Of a stretch of 30,680 bases of DNA, positions 5,321 to 22,669 are shown piece by piece (positions within the stretch are counted from its first letter, which is position 1; every line of letters begins with the position of its first letter). Position numbers and translations under genes: made by a program. Source of the stretch: Burkholderiales bacterium (GTDB taxonomy: Bacteria; Pseudomonadota; Gammaproteobacteria; Burkholderiales; Usitatibacteraceae); NCBI GenBank assembly GCA_031413695.1, contig JANOEV010000146.1:1-30680 (forward strand). The letters are read 5' to 3'. The notes under the pieces were generated by a model, which made no database searches, was not told where the DNA came from, and was given only the letters and a program-made list of their open reading frames with translations.

Positions 5321-5364
5321 TCAGAAACAGACAAGCCGGGCGAGCCCGGCTTGTCTGTTTCTGA
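5321..5364 (-). terminator. 20-bp perfect hairpin, probable terminator of the acnA/prp transcript
   Basis: TCAGAAACAGACAAGCCGGG-CGAG-CCCGGCTTGTCTGTTTCTGA, about 50 nt downstream of the acnA stop. Confidence 0.75.
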
Positions 5365-5414: not shown

Positions 5415-8120
5415 TCATGCCGCCTTGCCGATCAGTTCCCGCAACACATATGGCAGGATACCGCCGTGCAGGTAGTAGTCAACCTCAATCGGCGTGTCAA
5501 TGCGCAGCAATAACGTGGTTGCGTGTTTGCTGCCGTCCTTGCGCGTGATGGTAAGCGTCACATCCATTTGCGGCTTGATACCGTTTTCAATCCCGGTGAT
5601 GTCAAACGACTCGTCGCCTTTGAGTCCCAACGTTTCAGCAGATTCGCCGTTCTTGAATTGGCACGCAAGCACACCCATGCCAACCAGATTGGAACGATGG
5701 ATGCGCTCAAAGCTCTTGGCAATAACGGCTTTCACGCCGAGCAATTGTGTGCCCTTGGCCGCCCAATCCCGCGATGAGCCGGTGCCGTATTCTTCACCGC
5801 CAAAAACAACGGTCGCTGTGCCAGCCGCAACGTATTGCATGGCGGCATCGTAAATCGATGTTTGTTCACCACCCGGTTGCAAAAGTGTGAAGCCGCCCTC
5901 GATACGTGATTTGTCGGCATTCAACGGCAGCATCAAATTTTTGATGCGGACGTTGGCAAATGTACCGCGCATCATCACCTCGTGATTGCCGCGGCGTGCA
6001 CCATAGCTGTTGAAATCGGGCTTTAGTACTTTATGGTTGATCAGGTACTTTCCGGCCGGCGAAGAGTCCTTGATGGAGCCGGCGGGTGAGATGTGGTCGG
6101 TGGTCACCGAGTCACCGAAAATGCCCAGTGCACGCGCACCCTTGACGTCGTGCGCGACGCCGGCGGACATGCCGAAGTTGTCGCCGAAAAATGGTGGTTC
6201 GGCAATGTAAGTCGAGGTCGGCCAATCGTACACCTGTCCGTCAACGCCCTTGATGTTTTGCCAAAGCGGGTTGTCTGCGCCAAGATTTGAATACAGACGT
6301 TGATAGGTTGCCGGGTCTTTGGCGAAGTTCATGACAGCGGCGACTTCCGCACTGGTCGGCCAGATGTCCTTCAGGAACACCGGGCCGTTGGTGCCATGGC
6401 CGACCGGTTCGGTTTCGAGATCCTTTAGCACGGTGCCGGCAATGGCATAGGCCACCACCAACGGCGGTGACGCCAGAAAGTTTGCGCGGATATTCGGATG
6501 TATGCGTGCTTCGAAATTTCGATTGCCCGACAATACCGCCGCCGCCACCAAATCGTTTGATTGAATTGACTCGTTGAATGCCGGCGTCAGATCACCTGCG
6601 TTGCCGATACAGGTGGTGCAGCCATAACCCGCCAGATAAAAGCCGAGCTGTTCCAGATACGTGAGCAGACCGGCCTTGGTCAGGTAATCGGTGACCACCC
6701 GCGAACCGGGCGCCAATGAGGTCTTGATATGCGGTGCAACCTTCAGACCTTTTTCAACCGCCTTTTTCGCCAGCAGACCCGCAGCGAGCAAAACGCCAGG
6801 GTTGGACGTGTTGGTGCACGAAGTGATGGCGGCAATCAACACATCGCCCGAGCCAAGGTCAACGCCACCCTTGGTTGGAAATCGTTTGCCCAGGTCATCG
6901 GCCGACTTGGCAAATCCATTTTCGGCAACCGGCTTGGAAAACAGCGACGCAAATTGTGACTTCATGTCGCCCAATTCAATTCTGTCCTGCGGCCGTTTCG
7001 GACCGGCAAGTGATGCACGGACTGAATCGAGATCAAATTCGAGTGTTGTCGAATAATGGCAATCACCCTTCATCGGCACACCATACAAACCCTGCGCCTT
7101 GAAGTAGCTGCTGAATGCATCGAGTTCGTCTGCGGTGCGGCCGGTCGACTTGAGATAATCAACAGTGGTATCGTCAACCGGGAAAAAACCCATGGTCGCA
7201 CCGTACTCCGGTGCCATGTTGGCAATGGTGGCGCGGTCGGGCAGCGCGAGTGACGCCGTACCGGGGCCGAAAAATTCAACAAACTTGCCAACCACCTTTG
7301 CCTTGCGCAGTAATTCGGTTATGGTCAACACGAGGTCGGTTGCGGTTACGCCCTCGCGTAATTTGCCGGTAAGATTGACACCGACCACATCCGGCGTCAG
7401 GAAATACACCGGCTGCCCCAGCATGCCGGCTTCGGCCTCGATGCCGCCGACACCCCAGCCGACCACACCGATACCGTTGATCATGGTGGTGTGTGAGTCG
7501 GTCCCAACCAGTGTGTCCGGGTAATAAACGCCGGCCTTGCTGTGTACGCCGCGTGCGAGGTACTCAAGGTTGACCTGATGCACAATGCCAATGCCGGGTG
7601 GCACGACCTTGAATGTGTCAAACGCCTGCATTCCCCACTTCATGAATTGGTAACGCTCGACGTTGCGTTGAAATTCGAGTTTCATGTTCAGATCGAGCGA
7701 GTCTGCGGTGCCGTAGTTGTCGACTTGTACCGAGTGGTCGACCACCAGATCAACGGGTACCAATGGCTCGATCATTTTTGGATTCTTGCCCATCTTGCTG
7801 ACCACGCCGCGCATCGCCGCCAGGTCGGCCAACAACGGAATGCCGGTAAAGTCCTGCAACACCACGCGGGCGACAATAAATGGAATCTCGTTTGAACGCT
7901 GATCGCCGGGCTGCCAGTTGGCGAGTTGCTTTACGTGTTCTTCCGTGACTTTTTTGCCATCAACATTTCTCAATACCGCCTCAAGCACAATCCGGATCGA
8001 TACCGGCAGCTTTGCCACGTTTGGGTAGGTCTTGGCGAGTTCGGGCAGCGAATAAAACTGTCCGTTTTTGCCGGACGCCAACTTAAATGACTGCAGTGTG
8101 TTGTGGGTGTTATGGGACAT
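5415..8120 (-). CDS. acnA: Aconitate hydratase AcnA
   Basis: 901 aa; [59 protein letters not shown] (three cluster Cys), [25 protein letters not shown]; AAAGGA RBS upstream. Confidence 0.96.
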
Positions 8121-8256
8121 GCTGATTCCTTTAGAGGCGGGAACGACGTAACGGCAGATTTGATGGGATTGGTAATTTTAAGGCCATTGTCGGCCTAATT
8201 GCGGGAAACAAAAGGGATGGGAAGTGATGGCATCCGCATATACCCGAGCGGTGTTG

Positions 8257-9453
8257 TCAACGCTGTTCGTCGGGAACACGAACAAAACCTTCCATCAAGA
8301 CCCTTGCGCTACGGCTCATGATGGCCTTGGTCACCTGCCATTCACCATTCACCATTGCCGCCTCGGCACCGACCCGAAGCGTGCCGGATGGGTGACCAAA
8401 TCTGACCGCGGAGCGTGGAATACCACCCGCGGCGAGGTTGACCAGGGTGCCGGGAACGGCTGCCGCCACCCCGATGGCAACCGCCGCCGTACCCATCATG
8501 GCGTGATGCAGCTTGCCCATTGACATCGCACGAACCAGCAAATCGACGTCGCCTGCGGCAACCGGCTTGCCACTGGACGACACATAGTTGGCCGGTTTTG
8601 CGACAAATGCGATTTTGGGCGTATGTTGGCGTTTGGCAGCCTCGCTGACGTTTTTAATGAGCCCCATTTTGATCGCGCCATGGGCACGGATTGTTTCAAA
8701 CATTGCCAGTGCGTTGGCATCGCCATTGATGGCATCCTGCAATTCGCATCCGCGATAGCCGATGGCGTCGGCATTGACAAAAATGGTCGGGATACCGGCA
8801 TTGATCATGGTCGCCTTCAACACGCCGACACCCGGTACATCGAGATCATCAACCAAATTACCGGTTGGAAACATTGCGCCGCCCGCACCGGGTTCTTCCG
8901 CCGCCGGGTCCATGAATTCCAATTGCACTTCGGCTGCCGGGAAGGTGACACCGTCCAATTCGAAATCACCGGTCTCCTGGACCTGACCATTGGTCACCGG
9001 CACATGCGAGATGATGGTCTTGCCGATGTTGGCTTGCCAGATGCGCACAATTGCGACGCCGTTGGCGGGAATTCGGCCTGCGTCAACCAGACCATTGCTG
9101 ATTGCGTAGGGGCCGACGGCGGCGGACAGATTGCCGCAGTTGCCGCTCCAGTCGACAAACGGCTGGTCGATTGATACCTGCCCAAACAAATAATCCACAT
9201 CGTGATCGGCGCGGTCACTTTTTGCCAGGATCACCGTCTTGCTGGTGCTCGATGTTGCCGCGCCCATACCGTCAATTTGTTTGCCGTAGGGATCGGGGCT
9301 GCCGATCACCCGCAGTAACAATTGATCACGCGTCGGGCCGGGTTTTTGCGCCTGTTTCGGCAGGTCGGTTAATTTGAAAAACACACCTTTGCTGGTGCCG
9401 CCGCGCATATAGGTGGCGGGGATGCGGATTTGCGGTGCACTTGGCTGGGACAT
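8257..9453 (-). CDS. prpF: 2-methylaconitate cis-trans isomerase PrpF
   Basis: IPATYMRGGTSKGVFF, GSPDPYGKQIDGMG, DWSGNCGNLSAAVG, SMGKLHHAMMGT, MSRSARVLMEG. Start moved to ATG 9453 (MSQPSAPQIRIPA), 2 nt after the acnD stop. Confidence 0.95.
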   Translation of the reverse strand: MSQPSAPQIRIPATYMRGGTSKGVFFKLTDLPKQAQKPGPTRDQLLLRVIGSPDPYGKQIDGMGAATSSTSKTVILAKSDRADHDVDYLFGQVSIDQPFVDWSGNCGNLSAAVGPYAISNGLVDAGRIPANGVAIVRIWQANIGKTIISHVPVTNGQVQETGDFELDGVTFPAAEVQLEFMDPAAEEPGAGGAMFPTGNLVDDLDVPGVGVLKATMINAGIPTIFVNADAIGYRGCELQDAINGDANALAMFETIRAHGAIKMGLIKNVSEAAKRQHTPKIAFVAKPANYVSSSGKPVAAGDVDLLVRAMSMGKLHHAMMGTAAVAIGVAAAVPGTLVNLAAGGIPRSAVRFGHPSGTLRVGAEAAMVNGEWQVTKAIMSRSARVLMEGFVRVPDEQR

Positions 9454-9455
9454 TG

Positions 9456-12062
9456 TTATGCGGCCTTTGCAGATTCCAAAAAATCTTTGGCGAACCGTTG
9501 CAACACGCCACCCGCCTCGTAGACCGAGACCTCTTCCGCCGTGTCGAGCCGGCACATGACAGGCACGTTCAGCCGCTCACCGCTGTTGCGGGTGACCACG
9601 AGTGTCAACGTTGCACGCGGTGTGCGCTCACCGACCACGTCATAGGTCTCCGTACCATCGAGGGCCAGCGTCAGACGCGTGGTGCCCGGCATGAACTCAA
9701 GCGGCAATACGCCCATGCCGACCAGGTTTGTGCGGTGAATACGCTCAAAGCCTTCTGCGGCAATCGCCTCAACACCCGCAAGCCGCACACCTTTTGCCGC
9801 CCAATCACGCGACGAGCCCTGTCCATAGTCGGCGCCGGCGATGATGATCAACGGCTGCTTGCGTAACATGTAGGTTTCAATCGCCTCCCACATGCGGGTC
9901 ACCTTGCCCTCTGGTTCGATGCGGGTCAGTGAACCGCGCTTGACAACGCCTTCAACAACCGCCATTTCGTTGACGAGCGTGGGGTTGGCAAACGTTGCGC
10001 GCTGTGCTGTCAGGTGGTCGCCGCGATGCGTGGCGTATGAATTAAAGTCTTCCTCGGGCAGGCCCATCTTGGTCAGGTATTCTCCCGCCGCACTATTGGC
10101 CATGATGGCATTTGACGGCGAAAGATGGTCGGTGGTGATGTTATCGCCCAATACCGCGAGCGGCCGCATGCCGGTCAGCATGCGCGGGCTGGCGAGCGCA
10201 CCCTCCCAATACGGCGGGCGGCGGATGTAGGTGCTGTCGCCCCGCCAATCGTAAAGCGGGCTAACCCTGGTTGCGCTGCTTGCACGGCCTTCAAACATCG
10301 GGAAATAAACCTTGCGGAATTGCTCGGGCTTGACGCTCGATGCGACGATGGCATCAATTTCTTCATCCAACGGCCAAAGATCCTTGAGCAAAATCGGTTT
10401 GCCGAGACTGTCGTTGCCAAATGAATCTTTTTCAATATCAAAACGCACGGTGCCGGCGATGGCATAGGCGACCACCAACGGCGGCGACGCCAGAAATGCC
10501 TGCTTTGCATAGGGATGGATGCGGCCGTCAAAATTGCGATTCCCGGATAACACGGCGGTGGCGTATAAATCACGGTTAATAATTTCCTGCTGAATCTTGG
10601 GGTCGAGCGCGCCGGACATGCCGTTACAAGTAGTGCAGGCAAAGGCGACGATGCCAAAACCGAGCGCTTCCAGCTCGCCCATCAATCCCGCTTCTTCAAG
10701 ATACAGCGCAACGGTCTTGGAGCCCGGCGCGAGCGAAGTTTTCACCCACGGTTTGCGCGTGAGACCGGCACGATTCGCGTTGCGCGCAAGCAGGCCGGCG
10801 GCAATCACGTTGCGTGGATTGGATGTGTTGGTGCAGCTGGTGATTGCGGCGATGATCACGGCCCCGTCGGGCATTACGCCGGCGACATCGTTCCATTTGT
10901 TGGCGATGCCCCTGGCTGCAAGGTCGGCTGTTGCCACGCGGGCGTGTGGATTCGACGGGCCGGCCATGTTGCGTACGACGGTCGAGAGATCAAATGACAG
11001 TAGACGTTCGTAGACGACATCCTTTAGCGCGTTTGCGTCGGCGCCCGACCAGAGTCCCGCCACACGTGCGTAATTCTCCACCAGCCTGACCTGTGCGTCG
11101 TCACGACCCGTCAACTTCAGGTAATTGATCGTTTGCTGATCGACGGAAAACATTGCCGCCGTTGCGCCATACTCGGGCGCCATATTGGAAATCGTCGCAC
11201 GATCCCCCAGGGTAAGTGCGGCCGCGCCAACGCCATAAAATTCAAGGTACGCACCGACCACTTTTGATTTGCGCAAAAATTCGGTCATGGCCAGCACCAC
11301 ATCGGTTGCCGTGATGCCCGGTTGCGGGCGGCCGGACAGTTCAACGCCGACAATTTCAGGAAGTCGCATCCATGAGGCGCGACCGAGCATGACATTTTCG
11401 GCTTCCAGACCACCAACACCGATGGCAATCACACCCAACGCATCAACGTGTGGTGTGTGGCTGTCGGTGCCAATGCAGGTATCCGGGAATGCAATGCCGT
11501 TCTGCGCGTGGATGACCGGCGACATTTTTTCCAGATTGATTTGGTGCATGATGCCGTTGCCGGCCGGAATCACATCGACATTGTGGAAGGCATTTTTTGT
11601 CCAGTCGATGAAATGAAAGCGATCCTCGTTGCGGCGGTCTTCAATCGCGCGATTTTTTTCGAATGCCTGCGGGTCAAAACCGCCACATTCAACCGCGAGT
11701 GAGTGGTCGACGATCAGTTGCACAGGCACCACCGGATTGACCTTGGCCGGATCGCCACCCTGGTCGGCGATGGCGTCACGTAATCCGGCAAGGTCAACCA
11801 GGGCAGTCTGGCCGAGGATGTCGTGACACACCACCCGCGCCGGGAACCACGGAAAATCAAGGTCCCGTCTGCGCTCGATGATTTGTGTGAGCGACGCCGT
11901 CAGCGTGGTCGGATCGCAGCGGCGCACAAGATTCTCGGCAAAGACGCGCGAGGTATAAGGCAGTTTGTCGTAGGCGCCGGGCTGGATGGCGTCAACCGCG
12001 GCGCGTGCATCAAAAAAATCGAGCGTGGTGTTTGGCAGTTGCTTGCGATATTGCGTATTCAT
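9456..12062 (-). CDS. acnD: Fe/S-dependent 2-methylisocitrate dehydratase AcnD
   Basis: 868 aa aconitase-family protein with AcnD-type MNTQYRKQLP, RVVCHDILGQTALVDLAGLRDAIA and FACTTCNGMSGALDP; lies between prpC and prpF. Confidence 0.95.
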   Translation of the reverse strand: MNTQYRKQLPNTTLDFFDARAAVDAIQPGAYDKLPYTSRVFAENLVRRCDPTTLTASLTQIIERRRDLDFPWFPARVVCHDILGQTALVDLAGLRDAIADQGGDPAKVNPVVPVQLIVDHSLAVECGGFDPQAFEKNRAIEDRRNEDRFHFIDWTKNAFHNVDVIPAGNGIMHQINLEKMSPVIHAQNGIAFPDTCIGTDSHTPHVDALGVIAIGVGGLEAENVMLGRASWMRLPEIVGVELSGRPQPGITATDVVLAMTEFLRKSKVVGAYLEFYGVGAAALTLGDRATISNMAPEYGATAAMFSVDQQTINYLKLTGRDDAQVRLVENYARVAGLWSGADANALKDVVYERLLSFDLSTVVRNMAGPSNPHARVATADLAARGIANKWNDVAGVMPDGAVIIAAITSCTNTSNPRNVIAAGLLARNANRAGLTRKPWVKTSLAPGSKTVALYLEEAGLMGELEALGFGIVAFACTTCNGMSGALDPKIQQEIINRDLYATAVLSGNRNFDGRIHPYAKQAFLASPPLVVAYAIAGTVRFDIEKDSFGNDSLGKPILLKDLWPLDEEIDAIVASSVKPEQFRKVYFPMFEGRASSATRVSPLYDWRGDSTYIRRPPYWEGALASPRMLTGMRPLAVLGDNITTDHLSPSNAIMANSAAGEYLTKMGLPEEDFNSYATHRGDHLTAQRATFANPTLVNEMAVVEGVVKRGSLTRIEPEGKVTRMWEAIETYMLRKQPLIIIAGADYGQGSSRDWAAKGVRLAGVEAIAAEGFERIHRTNLVGMGVLPLEFMPGTTRLTLALDGTETYDVVGERTPRATLTLVVTRNSGERLNVPVMCRLDTAEEVSVYEAGGVLQRFAKDFLESAKAA

Positions 12063-12097
12063 TGGATTCCAATTCTGCTGCGGGGGTTAACGGGCAA

Positions 12098-13261
12098 TCA
12101 CACCCGTTTGGCGATCGGTACAAATTGCAAATCGTCCGGCCCGATGTAATTCGCGCTTGGCCGGATGATCTTATTGTCGATACGCTGCTCGATCACGTGT
12201 GCCGCCCAGCCAGAGGTCCGACTGATAATAAAGAGTGGCGTAAACATTGACGTTGGCACGCCCATCATGTGATAACTCACGGCGCTGAACCAATCGAGGT
12301 TCGGGAACATTTTCTTTTCCCGCATCATCACCGCCTCCAACCGGTCTGCAATGCTGTAGAGCTTCATATTGCCCTGGGCCTTGGCGAGTCCCTCCGCAAC
12401 ACGTTTGATGACGACGTTTCTCGGGTCAGAGATGGTGTAAACCGGATGCCCAAACCCGATGATGACTTGTTTTTCGGCAACGCGTCTGACAATGTCGGCC
12501 TCTGCCTCATCCGGATTGTCATAACGCGATTGGATATCAAACGCGACTTCATTTGCACCACCATGCTTGGGGCCGCGTAGCGCGCCGATCGCACCGGTGA
12601 TTGCCGAATACATATCGGAGCCAGTACCGGCAATGACACGGGCGGTAAACGTGGAGGCATTAAACTCGTGTTCAGCATAGAGATTCAGCGAGACGTGCAT
12701 GGCCTTGACCCATGCATCGGATGGCGGCTTGCCGTGCAATAGGTGCAAAAAATGGCCGCCGATTGAGTCATCGTCGGTTTCAACGTCGATGCGTTTGCCG
12801 TTGACCGCGAAGTGATACCAGTACAACAGCATTGAGCCAAACGAGGCCATCAAGCGATCGGCAATGTCTTTTGCCCCCGCCAGGCTGTGGTCGTCTTTTT
12901 CCGGCAGATTGCAGCCGAGTGCGGAACAGCCGGTACGCAGGACATCCATTGGATGCGCCGAAGAGGGCAGCGATTCAAGTGCGTCCTGCACTGCGACAGG
13001 AATCCCGCGTAACGACTTCAGCTTGGCCTTGTACGATTTCAGCTCAGTCGCGGTTGGTAGTTTGCCGTGGATAAGTAGATGTGCGATTTCTTCGAATTCG
13101 CATTGCTCGGCCATGTCGAGAATGTCGTAACCGCGGTAGTGCAGGTCGTTGCCGGTGAGGCCGACAGTGCACAGAGCGGTATTGCCGGCGACCACACCGG
13201 ATAACGCGACGGATTTTTTAACCTTGGGTCCCGCAGGCGCGGTGTTTGTAGCGTCCGACAT
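12098..13261 (-). CDS. prpC: 2-methylcitrate synthase PrpC
   Basis: [63 protein letters not shown]. Confidence 0.96.
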
Positions 13262-13270
13262 TGTGTCTCC

Positions 13271-13627
13271 TCACAGTTTTTGCATCAATTCAATTCGATT
13301 GCCAAATGGATCCCAGATTGATCCCCGATGGAAACCAGAAGGTCCTTTATCCAAGCGGGTTTTCAAGCCTTTTTGCTCCGCAATGCTCATCAATGCTTGA
13401 AAGTTGTCAACGCGCAAGGCCGGGTGGGCATACCCGGAAGCGGCAAACACATCTTCTTCGCCGAGATGCAAGTTGACCGCGCCCTGCGTTAACCACGCGC
13501 CGGTTTGGCGCATGTCGGCGGGTTTTGGCACACGGCTAAAACCCAGCATATCAACATAAAAGGCGAGCGCGCTGTCGAGTTGCCCGGACGGGATGGAAAC
13601 CTGCACGTGATCGAATGCCAGAATCAT
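13271..13627 (-). CDS. VOC / glyoxalase-family protein (118 aa)
   Basis: FDHVQVSIP...AFYVDMLGF, LHLG, HPALRVD and DPFGNRIEL give the VOC metal-ligand pattern (H, H, H, E). Start moved to ATG 13627, overlapping the GNAT stop (ATGA). Confidence 0.85.
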   Translation of the reverse strand: MILAFDHVQVSIPSGQLDSALAFYVDMLGFSRVPKPADMRQTGAWLTQGAVNLHLGEEDVFAASGYAHPALRVDNFQALMSIAEQKGLKTRLDKGPSGFHRGSIWDPFGNRIELMQKL

Positions 13628-14229
13628 TGTTGGGCCATTCGTTGTTGCCATTGCGCCGGCGAAATCCGATGCAGTAAATGGCGCTTGAGCGGCCAATCCA
13701 TTGGCACACGCGGGTGATCAAAATCGCCCGCCGCATCCCGCACCATGCCCAACCGGTCCATTACCCGGTGTGATGGCGTGTTGGTGGCGACCGACATGGC
13801 CACAACCTGCGGCAATTGCAGGTGGGCAAACGCAAAATCAAGCGCCGCCGCGGCACCCTCGGTTGCGTACCCCTGGTGCCACGCGTCGCGTGCAAGCCGC
13901 CAACCAACTTCAACCGCAGGCATCCACGGCGCTTCAAAGCCGGGCACGCTCAAGCCGACAAAGCCGGCAAATGGATGGATATTCGGGATCTCAATGGCCC
14001 ACATTCCCCAACCACGTTGTTGGATTCCGGCGCGAATGCGCGACATCTCGCTGGCGGCTTCATCGGCCGACAGCAATTTCGGAAAAAATTTTCGAACGTC
14101 GGGGTTGGCATTCATTGCAGACCATGCACCGGCATCGCTGTCCTTCCATTGACGCAACAACACGCGCGGGGTGCGCAATTCGACCGGCGATGGGAAGGTG
14201 CGTAGCAGCAGGGTGGAAACATCCGGCAT
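13624..14229 (-). CDS. GNAT family N-acetyltransferase (RimJ/RimL-like)
   Basis: LRTPRVLLRQW, FAGFVGL, VEVGWRLARDAWHQGYATEGA, NTPSHRVMDRLGM; ATG overlaps the prpB stop (TAATG). Confidence 0.88.
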   Translation of the reverse strand: MPDVSTLLLRTFPSPVELRTPRVLLRQWKDSDAGAWSAMNANPDVRKFFPKLLSADEAASEMSRIRAGIQQRGWGMWAIEIPNIHPFAGFVGLSVPGFEAPWMPAVEVGWRLARDAWHQGYATEGAAAALDFAFAHLQLPQVVAMSVATNTPSHRVMDRLGMVRDAAGDFDHPRVPMDWPLKRHLLHRISPAQWQQRMAQQ

Positions 14230-15110
14230 TATTTTTTGGCGGCGTAGAGTTTATCCAGCGACTGTTCAAACGCGTGATAGCCAATTCGGTCGTAGAGCTC
14301 TTCGCGGGTCTGCATGATGTTGACGACATTTTTTTGTGTGCCGTCGCGGCGGATCGCCTCATAAACCGTTTCAGCCGCCTTGTTCATTGCGCGAAAGGCT
14401 GACAGCGGATATAAGACCATTGCAACATCGGCGGCGCGCAACTCGTCGGTGGTGAAGAACGGTGTTTTACCAAACTCCGTGATGTTGCAAAGAATCGGCT
14501 TTTTCGTCGCTTCCACAAAACGTTTGTAGGTCGGTAAATCGTACGCGGCCTCAACAAAGATGCCGTCTGCACCGGCTTCGGCGAAAGCGACTGCACGTTC
14601 AAGAGCGGCGTCAACACCTTCGACTTGAATCGCATCCGTGCGGGCAATGATGAAGAAATCGGCATCGGTTTTGGCGTCGACCGCCGCTTTGACACGATCG
14701 ACCATTTCCTGTTGGGTGACAATTTCCTTGCCTGGCCGGTGGCCACAACGCTTGGCGCCGACCTGGTCTTCGATATGGCACGCCGCCGCGCCGAACTTGA
14801 TGAGTGACTTGACGGTGCGGGCAATGTTGAATGCGGATGGACCAAAGCCGGTGTCGATGTCAACCAGCAATGGCAGGTCACACACGTCGGTGATGCGACG
14901 AATGTCGGTCAGCACATCGTCGAGGTTGTTGATGCCCAAATCGGGCATGCCGAGTGAGCCGGCCGCAACACCGCCGCCGGAAAGGTAAATTGCACGGTAG
15001 CCGGCGCGCTTGGCCAACAATGCATGATTGGCATTGATTGTGCCGATGATTTGCAGCGGCTTTTCGTCTATCAGGGCTTGGCGGAATTTTGCGCCGGCAG
15101 ATTGCATCAT
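14229..15110 (-). CDS. prpB: Methylisocitrate lyase PrpB
   Basis: [56 protein letters not shown] catalytic loop. Start ATG 15110 or 15107. Confidence 0.96.
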
Positions 15111-15150
15111 TTGATTACCGATCAAGAATGTTGGGACAACCAATTAGGGG

Positions 15151-16143
15151 TCATGCGGCAAAAAAAGCAGCGTCGGCCTCGGCGGTTATTTTAACGCCAG
15201 TCACCTTGGCCTTTTGCAGCAGCTCCCAAAAGTATCGATAGGTGGCCCGGTCGTGCAATTCGCCCTTGTATTGGATCGGGCCCCAGTCAACTGCCTGGGC
15301 GGCGAGCAAAATGTTGGCGGCATCCTCAACCTCGGAGTGATCGGGCTGCATGGCGTCGACAATCGGCTGGATTTGTGCGGGGTAGATCGACCACATGCGC
15401 AGGAAGCCGAACTCATTGCGCGCGCGCAACGCGTCAGCCTTTACCACCTCGGTGTTCTTCAGATCCAGGCAGACATTGTGGGCGGGCACAACACCGTTGG
15501 CGAGTGCCGCCGCCACCACCTCCGCCTTGCCGCGCGCAATCAGGTGGTGTTCAAACTGCCCGGGCGAACGCATCGCTGATGCCGGAATCGCGCCGTGGTG
15601 CGCCGAGACAAAATCCATCAGTCCAAAATCAAGCACTTCGATGTCAGGTAACGCCGCGATTTGATGAACGTCGCGCAGTGCGCCATGGGTTTCAACCAGG
15701 ATATGGATCGGAATACTGCGGTCGATCGTATTTTTCGCCGCTGCCGCGCGTACATAGTCGATCATGTCGGCCGCGTCTTCAAGAGAAGTCGACTTCGGGA
15801 TCGTGATGTAGCGCAGAACGGCACCCGCACCGCCGACCAGAATATCGATATCCTGCCGCCAGTGCGGATGGGAGTGATCGTGAATGCGCGCACCCGCCAT
15901 TTTGTGTTTGTTGGCGTCACTTGTGAGCACCCGCACAATCATTTCGGCGTGGGATTTTTCCTGGCCAGCCGGCGCGCCGTCTTCGCAGTCGCAGGTGATA
16001 TCAAACACCGGACCAAGGCTATCCTGAAGCGCAAGTGCTTTCAGGATCAGCTTTTCGCTGCCGGCAAAGTGTTCGCACGAGGCGATCATCGGGAACGGTT
16101 TTTCCCCGGCGAACAGGGCGGTATCAGGGTGGACGGTTGACAT
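15151..16143 (-). CDS. HpcH/HpaI aldolase / CitE-like lyase family protein (betaproteobacterial TCA-cluster type)
   Basis: CEHFAGSEKLILKAL, DCEDGA, ARIHD, IHILVETHGAL, DFGLMDF, GFLRMWSIYPAQI, HDRATYRYFW. Start moved to ATG 16143. Confidence 0.85.
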   Translation of the reverse strand: MSTVHPDTALFAGEKPFPMIASCEHFAGSEKLILKALALQDSLGPVFDITCDCEDGAPAGQEKSHAEMIVRVLTSDANKHKMAGARIHDHSHPHWRQDIDILVGGAGAVLRYITIPKSTSLEDAADMIDYVRAAAAKNTIDRSIPIHILVETHGALRDVHQIAALPDIEVLDFGLMDFVSAHHGAIPASAMRSPGQFEHHLIARGKAEVVAAALANGVVPAHNVCLDLKNTEVVKADALRARNEFGFLRMWSIYPAQIQPIVDAMQPDHSEVEDAANILLAAQAVDWGPIQYKGELHDRATYRYFWELLQKAKVTGVKITAEADAAFFAA

Positions 16144-16179
16144 GATGGTTGTCTTCAAGAGGTCTAAAGTTTGGTCGGA

Positions 16180-17223
16180 TCAAGCTTGACGTTGCATCAG
16201 GATGGTGTAATCAAGGTCAAGAACGCGTTGCGCATCGGTCATCGATGCAGAAGCGACCGTATTGGGGTCGACATTCTTGTACCCGGCGAGCCGGACGCGG
16301 AGCGCGCCAATCTGTGCGCTCAACGGCCACTTGGCGATCGGCGTCGAGACGGCGTACAGCGTGTCGCCTGCAAAGGTTGGGTTGGTGTGCGCACCGGCGT
16401 TGATGGCGGCGACTGACAGTGCGTTTTCAAGGCCGTCGAAGGACAGGGCGCGGCAAATTGAGATCACCTGACCGCCGTAGACCAGCCGCCGGCCGAAACG
16501 TGAACCGGTCATATGGTGCGCGTCAAAATGCACCCGCGCCGTATTTTGGTAAAGCTTGGTGGCAAGTGTGTGGTCGGTTTCATCAAGCGTCATGCCGGCC
16601 GGATGTTTGATCGGTACATCCAGCACAATATCATCCCAAAAGTGCCGGCTGCCGGTCGCGCCAGCCACTTGCGTTGACGCACGGAAAAATGGCGGTACAT
16701 GCAAGTTGTCGGGCGCGACAAAGGCGGCAAATTCCGGCGCGATTGCCTGTCCTGTGTTGACTTGGGAATCGGCCGACGCGCAATGCACCATTACCCAGCG
16801 CACCCAGGTCAGAACCATTTGGTCGTTTTGATTAAATGCATTGGAGCGCACATACACCACGCCGGTCTTGCCGCTGCTGTTCTTGCGCAATCCGATAATT
16901 TCAGATTCCGCGTGTATGGTGTCGCCCACGAATACCGGTCGGATAAAGCGGCAATCGGCGTAACCAAGATTTGCCACCGCGTTGTAAGAAACATCGGCGA
17001 CGGTCTTGCCAAACGCAATATGAAACACCAGCATGTCATCAACCGGCGACGACGGGTAGCCGAGTGAATGTGCAAAGGGTTCGCTGCAATGCAGCGGATT
17101 ACGCGAACCGGTCAACGCCTGATAAAGCGCGGTATCGCCGTTGGTGATGGTGCGCGGGGTGGCGTGGACAAATTTTTGCCCGACAAGGTAGTCGCCGAAA
17201 AAATAGCCGGAAAGCGGTCTCAT
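16180..17223 (-). CDS. mch: Double hot-dog MaoC-family hydratase, most similar to mesaconyl-C1-CoA (2-methylfumaryl-CoA) hydratase Mch
   Basis: FFGDYLVGQ..HATPRT, FHIAFGKTVADVSYNAVANLGYA, NSSGKTGVVYVRS, WVRWVMV, ATKLYQNTARVHFD, RLVYGGQVIS, NAGAHTNPTFAGDT and LDLDY follow the Rhodobacter-type Mch pattern as I recall it, over the whole length. Substrate not provable from sequence. Confidence 0.78.
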   Translation of the reverse strand: MRPLSGYFFGDYLVGQKFVHATPRTITNGDTALYQALTGSRNPLHCSEPFAHSLGYPSSPVDDMLVFHIAFGKTVADVSYNAVANLGYADCRFIRPVFVGDTIHAESEIIGLRKNSSGKTGVVYVRSNAFNQNDQMVLTWVRWVMVHCASADSQVNTGQAIAPEFAAFVAPDNLHVPPFFRASTQVAGATGSRHFWDDIVLDVPIKHPAGMTLDETDHTLATKLYQNTARVHFDAHHMTGSRFGRRLVYGGQVISICRALSFDGLENALSVAAINAGAHTNPTFAGDTLYAVSTPIAKWPLSAQIGALRVRLAGYKNVDPNTVASASMTDAQRVLDLDYTILMQRQA

Positions 17224-17233
17224 GGAGGTGGTC

Positions 17234-18109
17234 TCAGGCCGATTCCAGTTCCTTGATCATTTGTGCAAGCGCAATGATGCGTTTGGATGCCGCCACATGA
17301 TGCCCCTCGACCAGCCGGCCGTTGAGCATGATGGTGCCGCGTCCGTCGCGATGCGCAACCTCAAGCGCGTCAATCACTTCATATGCGTAAGCAACCTCTG
17401 TCGCCTTTGGTGTGAAGGCGTCATTACAATAGGCAAGTTGATTGGGGTGCACTAGCGATTTGCCGTCGAAGCCGAGGTCACGCGTCAGGCGGCACGCCAT
17501 TTCAAAGGAATGCATGTCCTTGATATCGATGCTGATGCCGTCAACCACGGCACGTTTATAGGCGCGACCCACCAGCAATACGTGGGAGAGTGAGTAGTGC
17601 AACGGGATGCGGTCGGGCGTTTTTCGGCCGTGTAACTGCGTGATCAAATCCGACGTGGCCATGATCAGGCACGCAATCCGGTCTGATGCGGCGGCAATTT
17701 CCTCGGCGCGCAACACCGCAATCGGACTTTCAATCATCACCATGATCGGCAAATGTGAACCGCCTGCGGCATCCAATGCCGCGAGTGCATCAATCACATC
17801 CTGCCGCGATTCAATATTCGGAAATAACACGGCGTCTACGCCGATGCGCGCGACGGCCTTGACGTCATCAAGACCCCATGGCGAGTCCAGATCGTTTACC
17901 CGCACCACCAATTCGCGGCGTCCGTAACCACCGGACAAAATCGCCTCGACCACCTGGGTGCGCGAAAGCGCCTTGTTTTCAACCAGTACCGAATCGCCCA
18001 GGTCGAAGATCACCGAGTCGACCTTGACGGTTCGCGCCTTGTTCAAAAAACGCTGGAAGCAGCCGGGAACATAAAGCATTGAACGGCGCGGTCGGAGAAA
18101 TGGGGTCAT
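17234..18109 (-). CDS. CitE-family CoA-ester lyase/thioesterase, closest in pattern to Mcl2 ((3S)-malyl-CoA thioesterase), with atypical residues
   Basis: RPRRSMLYVPG, GYGRRELVVRVN, SPWGLDD, MIES, TSDL, DG, GFDGKSLVHPNQ, GRLVEGHHV. Start moved to ATG 18109. Confidence 0.82.
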   Translation of the reverse strand: MTPFLRPRRSMLYVPGCFQRFLNKARTVKVDSVIFDLGDSVLVENKALSRTQVVEAILSGGYGRRELVVRVNDLDSPWGLDDVKAVARIGVDAVLFPNIESRQDVIDALAALDAAGGSHLPIMVMIESPIAVLRAEEIAAASDRIACLIMATSDLITQLHGRKTPDRIPLHYSLSHVLLVGRAYKRAVVDGISIDIKDMHSFEMACRLTRDLGFDGKSLVHPNQLAYCNDAFTPKATEVAYAYEVIDALEVAHRDGRGTIMLNGRLVEGHHVAASKRIIALAQMIKELESA

Positions 18110-18172: not shown

Positions 18173-18200
18173 ATTCTAAAGCGTGTTTCAAAAAAGTCAA
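18173..18200 (-). promoter_or_regulatory. Sigma70-type promoter for the mcl-like/mch/prp/acn run
   Basis: On the minus strand TTGACT (18200-18195), 16-nt spacer, TAGAAT (18178-18173). Confidence 0.7.
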
Positions 18201-18206
18201 TAAGAC

Positions 18207-18228
18207 TTATATCTTATATAAGACATAA
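18207..18228. promoter_or_regulatory. Palindromic operator, SdhR-type GntR/HutC binding site
   Basis: TTATATCTTATATAAGACATAA: 22-bp palindrome with one mismatched pair and perfect core TCTTATATAAGA, between the divergent genes; matches the SdhR motif predicted by comparative genomics in Betaproteobacteria (TTATGTCTTATATAAGACATAA, from memory). Confidence 0.8.
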
Positions 18229-18255
18229 ATACATAATCGATGCTAATATTTCGCC

Positions 18256-19023
18256 ATGACCAATGTATCCCCGCCCAACATGCCGTCGTCCGCCACGCCC
18301 AGCTTCCAGCCGCTTTACGAGCAAATCAAGACGCTTATTACAAAAAGCCTGGTGTCCAGCGAATGGAAGCCCGGTGAGGCGATTCCGTCGGAAATGGAGC
18401 TGGCAACCCGTTTCGGCGTCAGCCAGGGTACCGTGCGCAAGGCAATTGATGCGCTGGCGGCGGAATTCATTGTTGTACGAAGGCAGGGTAAGGGTACCTT
18501 TGTCGCCACCCATACCGCGCCCAGTCAACAATATCGCTTTTTGCGGGTCCGACGCGATGACCGGAGCCATGTCGGTGCGGTGGTTCATCCAACCACAACA
18601 TTTATCGGCTTGGAGCGGGTGAAAGCGGATGCTGTCACGGCGGCAACGCTCGCGTTGCGTACCGGAACCTTAGTCACGGTCATCAAGCGCTTGCTGGTAT
18701 TTGCCGGACGTCCGCTCATCTTCGACCAGATACATTTGACCAACGCGGAGTTCCCCGGGCTGGCGATGGCGTCACTCGAGGCATCGCACGGTTCAATCTA
18801 CAGCTTCCTCGAGTCCGCCTATGGCGTGCGCATGATTCGGGCGGAGGAGAAAATCAAGGCGGTCGCGGCCGACCGGATCTCCGCCAAACATCTGAAGTTG
18901 TCGGTAGGCGCGCCATTGTTGAGCGTCGACCGGGTTGCCTATACATACGGTGACAAACCTGTTGAGTGGCGGCGCGGGTTATGTTTGACCGAGGGCTATT
19001 CGTATTTCAACGAATTGGCATGA
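18256..19023 (+). CDS. GntR family (HutC subfamily, UTRA domain) transcriptional regulator, SdhR-like
   Basis: PLYEQIK...WKPGEAIPSEMELATRFGVSQGTVRKAIDAL..RRQGKGTFV wHTH, C-terminal UTRA (IRAEEKIKAV, LLSVDRVAYTYGDKPVEWRRG); TCA-cluster context. Confidence 0.9.
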   Translation: MTNVSPPNMPSSATPSFQPLYEQIKTLITKSLVSSEWKPGEAIPSEMELATRFGVSQGTVRKAIDALAAEFIVVRRQGKGTFVATHTAPSQQYRFLRVRRDDRSHVGAVVHPTTTFIGLERVKADAVTAATLALRTGTLVTVIKRLLVFAGRPLIFDQIHLTNAEFPGLAMASLEASHGSIYSFLESAYGVRMIRAEEKIKAVAADRISAKHLKLSVGAPLLSVDRVAYTYGDKPVEWRRGLCLTEGYSYFNELA

Positions 19024-19308: not shown

Positions 19309-22182
19309 ATGTTTATGGATACGCGTCATACCGCTCCAGCCGATGAGGCTGTCACTAGGTCGTCGATCGTGTCGTCTGATTTGAACGCATTGCCCGAACA
19401 AGCGATTTCACGCGAGGTATTGCTGGAGAAATACGCTAAAGGCGACGAGGCCAGCGTGCACGCGGTCCGCTGGCGTGTGGCCAACGCATTGGCGGCGGTC
19501 GAACGTCCAGTTCAACGCGATGAATGGGCGCAGCGTTTCTTTGCGGCACAAGAGGCGGGGTTTATCGCGGCCGGCCGCATCAATTCCGCGGCAGGCACCA
19601 CACTGTCGGCGACGTTGATCAATTGTTTTGTGCAACCGGTCGGTGATTCAATTACCGAAGTCGTTGACGGCACCCCGGGAATCTATACTGCGCTCGCCGA
19701 AGCCGCCGAGACGATGCGGCGTGGCGGCGGCGTCGGCTACGATTTTTCGGCAATCCGCCCGGAAGGCGCATGGGTGCGCGGTACGGATTCGCGGGCAAGC
19801 GGACCGGTGTCGTATATGAAAGTGTTTGATCGTTCCTGTGAAACCGTCGAGTCTGCCGGTTCACGCCGCGGCGCACAAATGGGCGTGTTACGTTGTGACC
19901 ACCCGGATATTGAAACTTTCATTCACGCCAAGGACGGCGGCGGGCTCACCAACTTCAATATTTCGGTCGGTGTCAGCGATGCGTTTATGCAGGCGGTTGA
20001 GGTGGATGGGCCGATTGACCTGGTACACCGTGCCGAGCCCTCGCCTGAAGTGATGGCAACGGGTGGATCTCGGCGCGCGGACGGACAATGGGTTTATCGG
20101 ACCTTGCCCGCCCGCAGGTTGTGGGCGCAGATTATGCAGTCGACCTACGACCATGCCGAGCCGGGCATTTTGTTTCTGGACACCATCAACCGTGACAACA
20201 ATCTGAACTATTGTGAGTCCATCGCGGCAACCAATCCCTGCGGTGAACAACCACTGCCGCCGTACGGCTGTTGCTGCCTTGGCTCGATCGATCTGACACG
20301 ATTTGTGTTGGCGGCTTTTGCGCAAGACTGTTCGTTCAATTTTGATGCTTTCAGTGATGTGATCGAAACAGCGGTGCGGATGCTCGACAACGTCCTCGAT
20401 GTCACCGAGTGGCCCCTTTCCGCACAGCATGACGAAGCACGCGCCAAGCGGCGCATCGGGCTTGGCTTTACCGGCTTGGGAGACGCACTTGCCATGTTGC
20501 GGCTGCGATACGACACGCCAGCGGCGCGCGACATGGCGTCAACGATCGCCGCGTTCTTGCGTGATCGTGCTTATGCAGCGTCAGTGGCGCTGGCCGAAGA
20601 GCGTGGGGCCTTTCCACTGTTTGACGCCAATCGATATCTGTCGGGCGGCAATTTTGCCTCCCGTCTACCGGAAAATCTCCGCGCAGACATCCAAAAACAC
20701 GGCATCCGCAATTCACACCTGCTGTCAATCGCGCCGACGGGTACGATTTCACTCGCCTTCGCCGACAATGCGTCCAATGGCATCGAGCCGCCATTTTCAT
20801 ATACCTATCAGCGCAAAAAGCGCAATGCGGATGGGTCGCACAAGCACTACATGGTCGAGGATCATGCGTGGCGGCTGTTCAGACACGCTGGTGGCGATGT
20901 TGAAAATCTGCCGGACTACTTTGTCACGGCGCTTGAGATTTCCGCGGGCGCGCACCTGCAGATGGTCGCCGCCGTGGCACCTTACATCGACACTGCAATT
21001 TCAAAAACGGTCAATGTTGCCGAGGATTACCCTTACGAGGACTTTGAACATCTTTATATCGATGCTTGGAAATCACAGCTCAAGGGAATCGCCACTTACC
21101 GGCCAAACAGCGTACTCGGTTCGGTCCTGTCAGTCACGCCCCCGATGCAGGCGGCAGTTCCGGACAAGCACAACGCGCGACTGGCGATTGATTCGTTGCC
21201 GGCGCCGGTGTTGGCCTCCCTGCGTTGGCCGGGGCGGCCGGAGCTTTGCGATGGCAACGACGCGTGGACATACATGATCGAGTCTCCCCATGGCCGGTTT
21301 GCGTTGTTCGTCGGACACATTGAGGAGAACGGCAAGGCGTTCCCGTTTGAAGTCTGGGTCAACGGCACCGAACAGCCACGGGGGTTGGGTGCCGTTGCAA
21401 AAACGCTGTCGATGGATATGCGCGCCAATGACCGTGGCTGGCTCGCGCTAAAGCTCGACGCACTGACCAGCACCGGTGGTGATGAGCCGTTTGACATGCG
21501 GTTCCCGCCAGTCGGTGAAAAACAGCGAATGCCAAGCGTCGTTTCCGCAATCGCGCAGATTATTCGCTACCGGTGTGAGCGACTCCACACATTTGAAGGG
21601 TCTGGCGGCACGCCGGTGCTCGATGTGATGTTCTCTGTGGATGAACCACGAACTGGCGTTGACGGGACACTGTCATGGACGGTTGACGTTGCCAATCCGG
21701 CGGCAAGCGACGATTTTGTTCTGGGGCTGAAAGAAGTCACGCTGCCCGATGGCACAACACGGCCCTACTCGATGTGGTTGTCAGGAAACTACCCGCGGAC
21801 CCTCGATGGCTTGTCGCGGATTCTTTCGCTGGACATGCGCGTGCATGATCCGGCGTGGATCGGCATGAAGCTCCGCAAGTTGCTGAACTACGCCGAACCG
21901 CTTGGCGATTTCATGGCATTTGTGCCGGGTGAACGCCGCCAGCAAAACTGGCCATCCACGGTTGCCTACATCGCGCGCCTGCTTATCCATCGCTACAACA
22001 CGCTCGGCGTGCTTGACAAAAACGGCTATCCGACAAGGGACATGGGTATTCTCGATGTGCCGCAGCAGCCCAGACGGTTGATGAGGGGCGGTGTTTGTCG
22101 TGAATGCGGACATCATGCGGTGATTCGCAAAGACGGCTGTGATTTTTGTGGTGCTTGTGGTTGGATTGGTGTTTGCGGCTAA
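19309..22182 (+). CDS. nrdJ: Adenosylcobalamin-dependent (class II) ribonucleotide reductase NrdJ
   Basis: [44 protein letters not shown] (N-C-E), [33 protein letters not shown]; C-terminal CRECG...CDFCGACG zinc ribbon; no small-subunit gene nearby. Start may be 19309 or 19315. Confidence 0.92.
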
Positions 22183-22206
22183 ACCGTTTTCGCATTTGCC
22201 GCCCGG

Positions 22207-22548
22207 CTATTGTTTTCCCGCCAGCTTTCTCAACACCGCGTCATTCATCCACTCGTTAAGGCTGACGCCACTTGATCGGGCCTCAATCAGCACGGCAGCG
22301 TGCACTTCCGGGGCGAGTCGGACCAGTATTTTCCCCGCGGCTGGTTTTTCCGGGTCAATGCCAGCCTCCTGACAAACCATCAGATAGTGGTCGATGGCAA
22401 ACATAAAATCGCCACGCAATTCGTCGACACTTGCACCGTAAAACGAGATTGCTTCCGACAATCCGAGCACGCTGCCGGCAAAAACGCCGTCGGCTTCATC
22501 GAAGTCGATGCGGGCGATGTATCCGCGGTAGCGCATGATGTTTTTCAT
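22207..22548 (-). CDS. hicB: HicB-family antitoxin (RNase H-like N-terminus plus ribbon-helix-helix), no adjacent hicA
   Basis: MKNIMRYRGYIARIDFDEADGVFAGSVLGLSEAISFYGASVDELRGDFMFAIDHYL...PEKPAAGKILVRLAPEVH...SGVSLNEWM is the typical proteobacterial HicB pattern. Start moved to ATG 22548 (113 aa). Confidence 0.88.
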   Translation of the reverse strand: MKNIMRYRGYIARIDFDEADGVFAGSVLGLSEAISFYGASVDELRGDFMFAIDHYLMVCQEAGIDPEKPAAGKILVRLAPEVHAAVLIEARSSGVSLNEWMNDAVLRKLAGKQ

Positions 22549-22645
22549 GATTGGCGTGGCGGGATCGGCGCCAGATGGCATATGCGGGCGTCCGTCAACG
22601 TCGGGACAAAAGTGGCAACGGACCTGACAAAATCTAACAAAAAGT

Positions 22646-22669
22646 ATGATATCAAATAATGATATCAAA
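22646..22669. promoter_or_regulatory. Tandem ATGATATCAAA boxes, probable HicB (RHH) operator
   Basis: ATGATATCAAA at 22646-22656 and 22659-22669 (13-bp period), each containing the palindrome TGATATCA, about 100 nt upstream of hicB. Confidence 0.55.

Follow-up and report, generated by a model that had tools for sequence, protein, structure and literature searches.

A mesaconyl-CoA hydratase-type gene and two CitE-type genes linked to the methylcitrate cycle in an operon of an uncultured freshwater betaproteobacterium

The DNA stretch studied here, referred to as the window, is 30,680 nucleotides long and corresponds to contig C146 of a metagenome-assembled genome (MAG) of an uncultured freshwater betaproteobacterium in the GTDB order Burkholderiales (3.07 Mb in 568 contigs, 90.6% complete, 4.4% contaminated). 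On its minus strand, from position 18109 to 5415, ten genes are arranged head to tail: citE1, mch and citE2, encoding two CitE-like proteins and a hydratase, are followed by prpB, genes for a GNAT acetyltransferase and a VOC-fold protein, then prpC, acnD, prpF and acnA (Table 1). Judged from the sequence, citE1, mch and citE2 are joined with the methylcitrate cycle (prp) genes behind one promoter and operator, as an earlier reading of the bare sequence (the original prediction) had held; promoter and operator are conserved in relatives, and there is no terminator-like site in between. The same operator is found at a second locus on another contig, which encodes a third CitE-like protein (CitE3), an acyl-CoA ligase and a fumarase, and the two loci and a divergent GntR regulator appear to constitute one regulon. 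We consider the operon a lineage-specific version of a described betaproteobacterial supercluster, the "methylcitric acid cycle" (MCC) cluster. A route from a C5 acid through mesaconyl-CoA into the methylcitrate cycle is our preferred, if tentative, reading.

Organization of the operon and a shared operator

The original prediction described ten co-oriented genes with short gaps, and this layout was recovered at the same positions. The intergenic distances are 10 nt between citE1 and mch, 36 nt between mch and citE2, and 7 nt between citE2 and prpB. The prpB and GNAT genes share a 1-nt overlap; the GNAT and VOC genes overlap too, the start of the latter being uncertain. The series continues with 9 nt (VOC-prpC), 35 nt (prpC-acnD), 2 nt (acnD-prpF) and the anticipated 136 nt between prpF and acnA. 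A terminator scan of the region found no intrinsic-terminator-like site in the gaps within the operon, and a terminator-like hairpin is located 3' of acnA. We also looked for a separate acnA promoter in the 136-nt gap, where no convincing site was found.

The single sigma-70-type promoter expected ahead of the operon (TTGACT-16-TAGAAT) is positioned directly upstream of citE1. Both of its hexamers are kept in an alignment of the upstream regions of relatives, and the expected operator is conserved there as well. An extra operator half-site overlaps the -35 hexamer. The divergent GntR/UTRA regulator adjoins the cluster in all relatives and is the conserved regulator of the betaproteobacterial tricarboxylic acid (TCA)/methylcitrate supercluster.

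The operator is a 14-nt palindrome, of which the copy in front of the operon (18211-18224) has one mismatch to the consensus GTCTTATATAAGAC. When up to two mismatches were allowed, only two sites were found in the 3.07-Mb host genome, one at the operon and one on contig C302. The second site is a perfect copy (C302:4209-4222), situated between acs and the CitE3 gene and 10 nt before a TTGACG -35 hexamer. In shuffled controls (100 shuffles), 0 matches were obtained for the operon site, and 0.00 and 0.01 matches per source. With up to one mismatch, the palindrome occurs exactly once in each of the 52 related loci fetched, and in every locus that could be placed it sits either in the gap between gntR and mdh or citE1, or upstream of the gene for CitE3. 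Because the palindrome is present only at these two genomic positions, the operon, the GntR regulator and the CitE3-ligase-fumarase locus would appear to belong to one regulon.

The C302 cluster (L150:4209-9348) is divergent from acs and encodes CitE3 (375 aa), an AMP-forming acyl-CoA ligase (547 aa), a UPF0114 protein and a class I Fe-S fumarase (509 aa). The locus is conserved in relatives, where it is found next to an actP-type permease gene. All motifs of the lyase set (Arg, Glu, Asp, lid Asp) can be recognized in CitE3, the lid Asp in its alignment, and among solved structures CLYBL is its closest relative; the ligase is distinct from the PrpE and Acs proteins of the host. Of the 151 genomes of the order, the same 7, from 4 genera in 3 families, carry citE1, mch and CitE3 together. 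In two genomes from two other Burkholderiales families (G113 and G174), the citE1-mch-citE2 trio lies away from prp and is directly preceded by the genes for CitE3 and the ligase. The C302 locus is probably the second half of the pathway.

Assignment of the hydratase and the CitE-like proteins

The mch product is a fused double MaoC hot-dog protein of 347 aa, with Pfam matches to PF01575 (MaoC, 78 bits), PF13452 (FAS1_DH, 35 bits) and PF19315 (MC_hydratase, 49 bits against a cut-off of 26.5). Among solved structures it matches 4E3E of Chloroflexus aurantiacus over residues 6-346 (345 bits, E 2.9e-102) and 8HGN, the MeaC protein of Methylorubrum extorquens, over residues 4-344 (310 bits, E 1.4e-91). 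According to the paper on 8HGN, residues F71, S79, N85, R142, N226, H231, Y248 and G249 surround the bound malate and K113 contacts CoA. All eight substrate-site residues are identical in the mch product, with the same numbers and within ungapped parts of the alignment, and an Arg takes the position of K113. The top NCBIfam match is RipB/Ich, which covers only the N-terminal half (residues 2-150) and reaches 109 bits against a cut-off of 340. The hydratase had been proposed to be Mch-like, and with both solved enzymes matched at length and 8 of 8 site residues kept we file it, on residue-level evidence, as a predicted true mesaconyl-CoA hydratase. It is ~50% identical to alphaproteobacterial homologues, and a genome search of the host did not find a second Mch/Meh-like hydratase. 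In five relatives (G053:C44:16958-18046, G107:C29:899-1897, G017, G018 and G011) the hydratase match splits in two at the hot-dog linker (residues ~200-204), as would be expected if the linker carried a variable insertion or the gene were split.

For citE1, the closest solved relative is the malyl-CoA lyase of R. sphaeroides (123 bits). Its lid hairpin GRLVE aligns with GRLVD of 4L9Y, a Glu standing where the lyase has its catalytic Asp (Asp299 in R. sphaeroides Mcl). This Glu-for-Asp signature is restricted to the Mcl2 thioesterase cluster (PMC3832036), and it is kept in ~74 of the 75 mch-adjacent citE1 homologues from alpha- and betaproteobacteria. In most alphaproteobacterial loci the homologue, at 38-47% identity, is likewise located directly upstream of mch. 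The NCBIfam matches are the CitE of citrate lyase (206 bits) and RipC/Ccl (110 bits against a cut-off of 375), and JGI labels the homologues generically as citrate lyase beta or citryl-CoA lyase.

The designation "Mcl2-like" in the original prediction stands as far as the Glu signature is concerned, but the Glu-Asp pair, DLED across the superfamily, reads DLGD in citE1 (Gly38, window 17996-17998). In the CitE superfamily this pair holds the Mg-bound waters (PMC3832036). Since DLGD was found in 22 of 22 close betaproteobacterial relatives of citE1 and distant homologues have DLED or DMED, it reflects selection and not a sequence error.

The best structural matches of citE2 are 3QQW (543 bits) and 3R4I (370 bits), two "CitE-like" proteins from structural genomics; the matches to Mcl are only 54 bits for 4L9Y and 33 bits for 4L7Z. 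Its motifs ARIH, VETH, LMDF, DCED and GELHD correspond to the catalytic Arg, the Glu/Asp Mg ligands, the Glu-Asp pair and the lid Asp, and the lyase residue set (Arg, Glu, Asp, lid Asp) is as described (PMC3832036). With this catalytic set kept, the proposal that the second CitE is lyase-like is upheld. The gene is present in 48 of the 151 high-quality Burkholderiales genomes.

Equivalog assignments were made with the curated cut-offs of NCBIfam, and PrpC, AcnD, PrpF and PrpB all score above them, so that the AcnD/PrpF variant of the methylcitrate cycle is complete. PrpD was not found in the host genome, nor in 3 of the 4 relatives searched, and it is absent where AcnD/PrpF are present. The start of prpB is uncertain (TTG at 15143 or an ATG ~30 nt downstream). 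The cluster ends with acnA in the window, and the same holds for 10 of the 20 other Burkholderiales loci that were examined.

Table 1. Positions of the genes and regulatory features in the window, with the basis of each assignment.
Feature	Position	Strand	Basis
Terminator-like hairpin 3' of acnA	5332-5348	-	intrinsic-terminator scan
acnA, aconitate hydratase A	5415-8120	-	TIGR01341, 1290 bits vs cut-off 945
prpF, 2-methylaconitate cis-trans isomerase	8257-9453	-	TIGR02334, 740 bits vs cut-off 441; ATG at 9453
acnD, Fe/S-dependent 2-methylcitrate dehydratase	9456-12062	-	TIGR02333, 1749 bits vs cut-off 1420
prpC, 2-methylcitrate synthase	12098-13261	-	NF009006, 707.5 bits vs cut-off 550
VOC/glyoxalase-fold protein	13271-13651	-	PF00903, 32 bits; PDB 2QQZ, 65 bits
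GNAT acetyltransferase, PA3944-like	13624-14229	-	PF13302 (Acetyltransf_3), 110 bits; PDB 6EDD, 172 bits
prpB, 2-methylisocitrate lyase	14229-15143	-	NF008455, 521 bits vs cut-off 353
citE2, CitE-like acyl-CoA lyase of the 3QQW/3R4I clade; candidate beta-methylmalyl-CoA/malyl-CoA lyase	15151-16143	-	HpcH_HpaI, PDB matches, motifs
mch, predicted mesaconyl-CoA hydratase (beta-methylmalyl-CoA dehydratase), double hot-dog	16180-17223	-	Pfam, PDB matches, site residues
citE1, CitE/HpcH-fold, Mcl2 (malyl-CoA thioesterase) type	17234-18109	-	Pfam HpcH_HpaI, signature residues
Sigma-70-type promoter TTGACT-16-TAGAAT	18173-18200	-	top match of region scan, 10/12 matches
Operator, 14-nt palindrome, consensus GTCTTATATAAGAC	18201-18230		palindrome at 18211-18224
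Divergent GntR/HutC-type regulator	18256-19023	+	Pfam GntR 73 bits, UTRA 102.5 bits

Conservation of the arrangement

The hydratase was found in 22 of the 24 genomes sampled from the genus. Within the genus, as in other MAGs, gntR diverges from citE1-mch-citE2-prpB-(GNAT)-(VOC)-prpC, which continues as acnD-prpF-acnA or as prpD-acnA, and the neighboring sdhCDAB-gltA-sucA genes recur with the operon in relatives. The whole arrangement is conserved across the genus and related MAGs.

In the common Burkholderiales layout, sucA-gltA-sdhBADC-gntR is divergent from mdh-citE2-(prpB-prpC-prpD)-acnA. Because citE2 neighbors TCA genes in 18 of the 20 loci fetched, the grouping of citE2, prpBC and acnA next to these genes is an old and common betaproteobacterial layout. 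A view of citE2 as a newcomer to the prp genes cannot be kept, with citE2-prpB-prpC-prpD-acnA next to sdh/gltA being common in Burkholderiales. What is new in this lineage is citE1-mch in the mdh slot; the mdh gene of the host is located on a separate contig (C189). The citE1-mch pair is all that is conserved in alphaproteobacterial and further distant loci, and none of citE2, CitE3, the ligase, the fumarase or prp was found within 10 kb.

A reduced variant, mch-citE2 without citE1 and CitE3, was observed in five genomes (G038 at C82 (L013), G074, G107, G126 and G170), all of which carry isocitrate lyase (ICL). In G038, mch-citE2 is joined to prpB-prpC.

Metabolic background of the genus

Crotonyl-CoA carboxylase/reductase (Ccr; TIGR01751, E <= 1e-50) was detected in 0 of 41 genomes of the genus, and the methylmalonyl-CoA-mutase family (PF01642) was not matched in any of the 5 high-quality genomes searched, of which one is closed. 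These counts rule out both the ethylmalonyl-CoA pathway and the disposal of propionyl-CoA through methylmalonyl-CoA. With the former goes the ethylmalonyl-CoA source of mesaconyl-CoA, for whose genes (ccr/ecm/mcd) the original prediction had suggested a search. In a genus devoid of the mutase, propionyl-CoA must pass through the methylcitrate cycle.

The absence of prpD, prpE and a sigma-54-type prpR from the window was confirmed, but prpE is not missing from the genome. PrpE scores above its cut-off in relatives, and the copy of the host is split over contigs C29 and C166, which removes the argument that propionyl-CoA is generated in situ for want of this enzyme.

Isocitrate lyase was found in 0 of the 41 genomes of the genus, where only PrpB was matched. 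Malate synthase is present in the genus (malate synthase A in the three genomes checked), and the source of its glyoxylate is unexplained unless the mch module provides it. Carriers of the full module are not ribulose monophosphate (RuMP) methylotrophs, because hexulose-phosphate synthase was not found in them and the E1 component of 2-oxoglutarate dehydrogenase is present.

Two family-III CoA-transferases encoded elsewhere were considered as the missing activator of the C5 acid and set aside. One of them is a formyl-CoA transferase above cut-off; the other, with no family assignment, lies in an unrelated context beside genes for a peptidase and a TonB-dependent receptor.

Proposed pathway and alternative readings

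The reading that we favor, with somewhat less than even confidence, is that a C5 acid is converted through mesaconyl-CoA and beta-methylmalyl-CoA to glyoxylate and propionyl-CoA, the latter entering the methylcitrate cycle; we infer both the substrates and the direction. Of the corresponding route in the original prediction, the assignments of the enzymes stand, as does their connection to the methylcitrate cycle, whereas the prpE argument, the novelty and any ethylmalonyl-CoA source fall away. The starting compound would be mesaconate, a branched C5 dicarboxylate, possibly formed from citramalate by the class I fumarase acting as a mesaconase, and the C5 acid could be external or made inside the cell. 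The ligase would activate mesaconate to mesaconyl-C1-CoA and Mch would hydrate this to beta-methylmalyl-CoA, to be cleaved to glyoxylate and propionyl-CoA by a CitE-like lyase, most likely citE2 or else CitE3. The methylcitrate cycle, presumably co-transcribed and the sole propionyl-CoA route of these genomes, would then oxidize propionyl-CoA to pyruvate and succinate. Glyoxylate and acetyl-CoA would give malyl-CoA, from which the thioesterase-type citE1 would release malate, or a separate malate synthase would take this step.

The direction is favored by the chemistry presumed for citE1. In the CitE-fold active site, the hydroxy-acid moiety of the substrate is bound on Mg (PMC3832036). By chemical reasoning, citE1 should hydrolyze malyl-, citramalyl- or beta-methylmalyl-CoA and not mesaconyl-CoA, which is an enoyl thioester. 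As citE1 would need a 3-hydroxy-acid thioester for its Mg site, the ligase is placed on mesaconate and the flow is drawn toward propionyl-CoA and glyoxylate.

Several observations weigh against this route. At the level of the enzymes, citE2 falls outside both known malyl-CoA lyase clades (4L9Y is matched at 54 bits only) and may mainly serve another purpose, given that it occurs in ~36 to 41 sampled genomes without mch and citE1. The DLGD motif of citE1 and its close relatives may alter the activity; the NCBIfam matches of the C302 ligase are all below cut-offs and point to no specific family; and the class I fumarase may simply be the fumarase of the TCA and methylcitrate cycles. At the level of the pathway, malate synthase would make a malyl-CoA thioesterase redundant, the presence of PrpE means that the prp genes do not need an internal source of propionyl-CoA, and no C5-dicarboxylate transporter was seen near the operon or the C302 locus. 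In the Methylophilaceae and Arcobacter literature, the enzymes of the module are without an assay in any organism.

A wider role, which we regard as rather unlikely, is that the operon and the C302 locus together supply a closed citramalate-methylcitrate cycle, in effect an ICL-independent glyoxylate bypass. CitE3 would form (S)-citramalyl-CoA from acetyl-CoA and pyruvate, citE1 would release citramalate, and the class I fumarase would convert it to mesaconate. After re-activation by the ligase, Mch and citE2 would yield glyoxylate and propionyl-CoA, and the methylcitrate cycle would regenerate pyruvate. The net reaction would be acetyl-CoA + oxaloacetate to glyoxylate + succinate, with malate synthase completing acetate assimilation. 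Such a cycle would give every gene of the regulon a job, the thioesterase and the fumarase included, and it fits the position of the C302 locus, which is divergent from acs with the operator in the shared gap and, in relatives, near an actP-type permease. It also fits a genus in which ICL was not found (41 of 41 genomes) and malate synthase is present.

The wider distribution of ICL is less clear. Among the 7 genomes that carry citE1, mch and CitE3 together, 6 lack it, against its presence in 87 of the 151 genomes of the order sample; counted by genus, 3 of 4 are without ICL, a trend that does not reach significance, and related genomes cannot be treated as independent. Moreover, ICL is encoded by G087, a genome of the same family with the full set, and by all five mch-citE2-only genomes, and many ICL-negative Burkholderiales with malate synthase have no module. 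A simple anticorrelation between mch and ICL was tried and dropped (ICL in 6 of 12 mch-positive against 81 of 139 mch-negative genomes), and so was the malate synthase profile as a clue, many ICL-negative genomes without the module having the enzyme.

Thermodynamically, the lyase condensation of acetyl-CoA and pyruvate is uphill and would be pulled only by hydrolysis, and the citramalate cycle of R. rubrum was abandoned in favor of the ethylmalonyl-CoA pathway. The closed cycle corresponds to the citramalate cycle that Ivanovsky (1997) and Miller et al. (2007) put forward on paper (PMC2147049). If it were true, it would be a new central carbon pathway, allowing acetate assimilation in a genus without ICL, the ethylmalonyl-CoA pathway and B12 mutases. 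To the known means of acetyl-CoA assimilation (the glyoxylate cycle, the ethylmalonyl-CoA route and the methylaspartate route) it would add one that so far exists on paper only. Otherwise, the module would be a C5-dicarboxylate catabolic branch of the methylcitrate cycle.

It is less probable still that the module runs in reverse, like the second cycle of the 3-hydroxypropionate bi-cycle, and turns propionyl-CoA and glyoxylate into acetyl-CoA and pyruvate. Beta-methylmalyl-CoA would be converted through mesaconyl-CoA, the free acids and citramalyl-CoA, providing a second sink for propionyl-CoA or a means of glyoxylate assimilation, co-regulated with the methylcitrate cycle. The equilibrium of beta-methylmalyl-CoA lyase favors condensation, PrpE supplies propionyl-CoA, and the module is predicted to be co-transcribed with genes that consume it. 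The same direction was favored for A. butzleri by Miller et al. (2007) (PMC2147049). However, the reverse route needs a thioesterase acting on mesaconyl-CoA, which as an enoyl thioester has no hydroxyl for the Mg site of CitE. An Mct-type intramolecular CoA transferase was not found linked to the cluster, and a second Mch/Meh-like hydratase was not found in the genome either.

A separate function of the three extra genes within the TCA supercluster, be it the removal or repair of side-product CoA esters (malyl-CoA, citramalyl-CoA or itaconyl-CoA) in the manner of CLYBL or the degradation of itaconate, is improbable. It is suggested by the position of citE2 between mdh and acnA in many Burkholderiales without mch, citE1 or even prp, by CLYBL being the closest solved relative of CitE3, and by the NCBIfam matches, with RipB/Ich on top for the hydratase and RipC/Ccl, below the CitE of citrate lyase, for citE1. 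However, RipB/Ich and RipC/Ccl fall far short of the cut-offs (109 of 340 bits and 110 of 375 bits), the hydratase resembles true Mch enzymes far more closely and keeps every substrate-site residue, and the cluster has no linked gene for an itaconate CoA-transferase. A dedicated pathway is favored instead by the strict co-occurrence, by the operator common to both loci and by the linkage to prp that recurs in several lineages.

Accessory genes and flanking regions

The GNAT and VOC proteins match only structural-genomics relatives in the PDB (PA3944 and 2QQZ), which gives no functional lead, and the start of the VOC gene may lie as far upstream as 13696. The presence of the two genes between prpB and prpC is variable in the genus, where both, one or neither was observed (L009-L013, L094, L096). 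One locus (L094) has an extra 116-aa open reading frame (Pfam PF28289) after prpC.

On the other side of gntR, genes for a 957-aa ribonucleotide reductase and a HicB-like protein are inserted ahead of sdhC (window 19309-22668). In other Burkholderiales gntR is found directly ahead of sdhC, and HicB occurs at this place in related MAGs too. The sucA gene (28063-30393) reaches the end region of the window. Because its missing C-terminal part (model positions 716-930) sits on contig C261 (C261:5109-5741), the apparent truncation is more likely due to a break in the assembly or a chimeric end of the contig than to disruption of an essential gene.

Comparison with known systems

The ethylmalonyl-CoA pathway of R. 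sphaeroides and M. extorquens shares with the operon an Mch ortholog and an Mcl2-type gene directly upstream of mch; in R. sphaeroides, mcl2 presumably adjoins mch. Here, in contrast, no Ccr or mutase was found, the lyase comes from another CitE clade, and propionyl-CoA is directed to the methylcitrate cycle and not to methylmalonyl-CoA. In the haloarchaeal methylaspartate cycle (Mct, Mch, lyase), mesaconate is likewise activated, hydrated and cleaved to propionyl-CoA and glyoxylate, but activation there is by a succinyl-CoA:mesaconate CoA-transferase, whereas the candidate here is an AMP-forming ligase. Scores with the haloarchaeal models were 36 to 48 bits, far short of the cut-offs (500 to 560).

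The original prediction knew of no described operon with the fused arrangement, which is nevertheless not new: Miller et al. (2007) predicted the chemistry of the module, and clusters listed for Methylophilaceae have the same set of gene families. In A. butzleri RM4018, ab1917-ab1921 encode a CitE, an acyl-CoA synthetase, an enoyl-CoA hydratase, another CitE and a class I fumarase (PMC2147049). They were predicted to interconvert glyoxylate + propionyl-CoA and pyruvate + acetyl-CoA, alongside an AcnD/PrpF methylcitrate pathway (PMC2147049). By this published description the sets are alike, but A. butzleri belongs to another phylum, its cluster is separate from prp, and its ligase is fused to a CitE domain. 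A fusion like that of ab1918 was sought among the best 120 homologues of the ligase, all of which were unfused close relatives.

With the Burkholderiales TCA supercluster, the operon has in common the regulator, the operator palindrome, citE2, prpB, prpC, acnA and the sdh/gltA/sucA neighbors. It differs in that citE1-mch replace mdh, acnD-prpF replace prpD, and the GNAT and VOC genes are added.

A close counterpart is the MCC cluster of Methylotenera mobilis (mmol_0748-0766) and M. versatilis (m301_0686-0703) (PMC3728764, PMC4109929). It comprises prpCBD, cyl1, maoC, cyl2, gntR, sdhABCD, cyl3, a ligase labelled "prpE", fum and acn (PMC4109929). Vorobev et al. (2013) found the cluster and gntR to be highly induced in situ and stated that the processed metabolite was unknown (PMC3728764). 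Compared by published lists, the inventory of gene families is the same (prpC, prpB, cyl1-3, maoC, gntR, sdhABCD, ligase, fum, acn). In contrast to the Methylophilaceae, the present host is TCA-complete and not a RuMP methylotroph, its operon has AcnD/PrpF instead of PrpD and inserted GNAT and VOC genes, mdh is on C189, and the CitE3-ligase-fumarase genes are on another contig, tied in only by the shared operator.

To these descriptions the present analysis adds residue-level assignments, which point to a true Mch, one thioesterase-type CitE and two lyase-type CitE proteins, the operator GTCTTATATAAGAC, which would tie both pathway halves and the GntR regulator into one regulon, and the elimination of the routes through ethylmalonyl-CoA and methylmalonyl-CoA. 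The evidence on the regulon and on individual residues narrows a long-standing question to direct enzyme assays. We regard the operon as a lineage-specific version of the described MCC supercluster with features of its own, namely a TCA-complete, non-methylotrophic host, AcnD/PrpF, the GNAT and VOC genes, two operator-linked loci and the DLGD motif. Its occurrence in ordinary TCA-complete heterotrophs of cold freshwater means that the enzyme set listed for the Methylophilaceae is not specific to methylotrophs.

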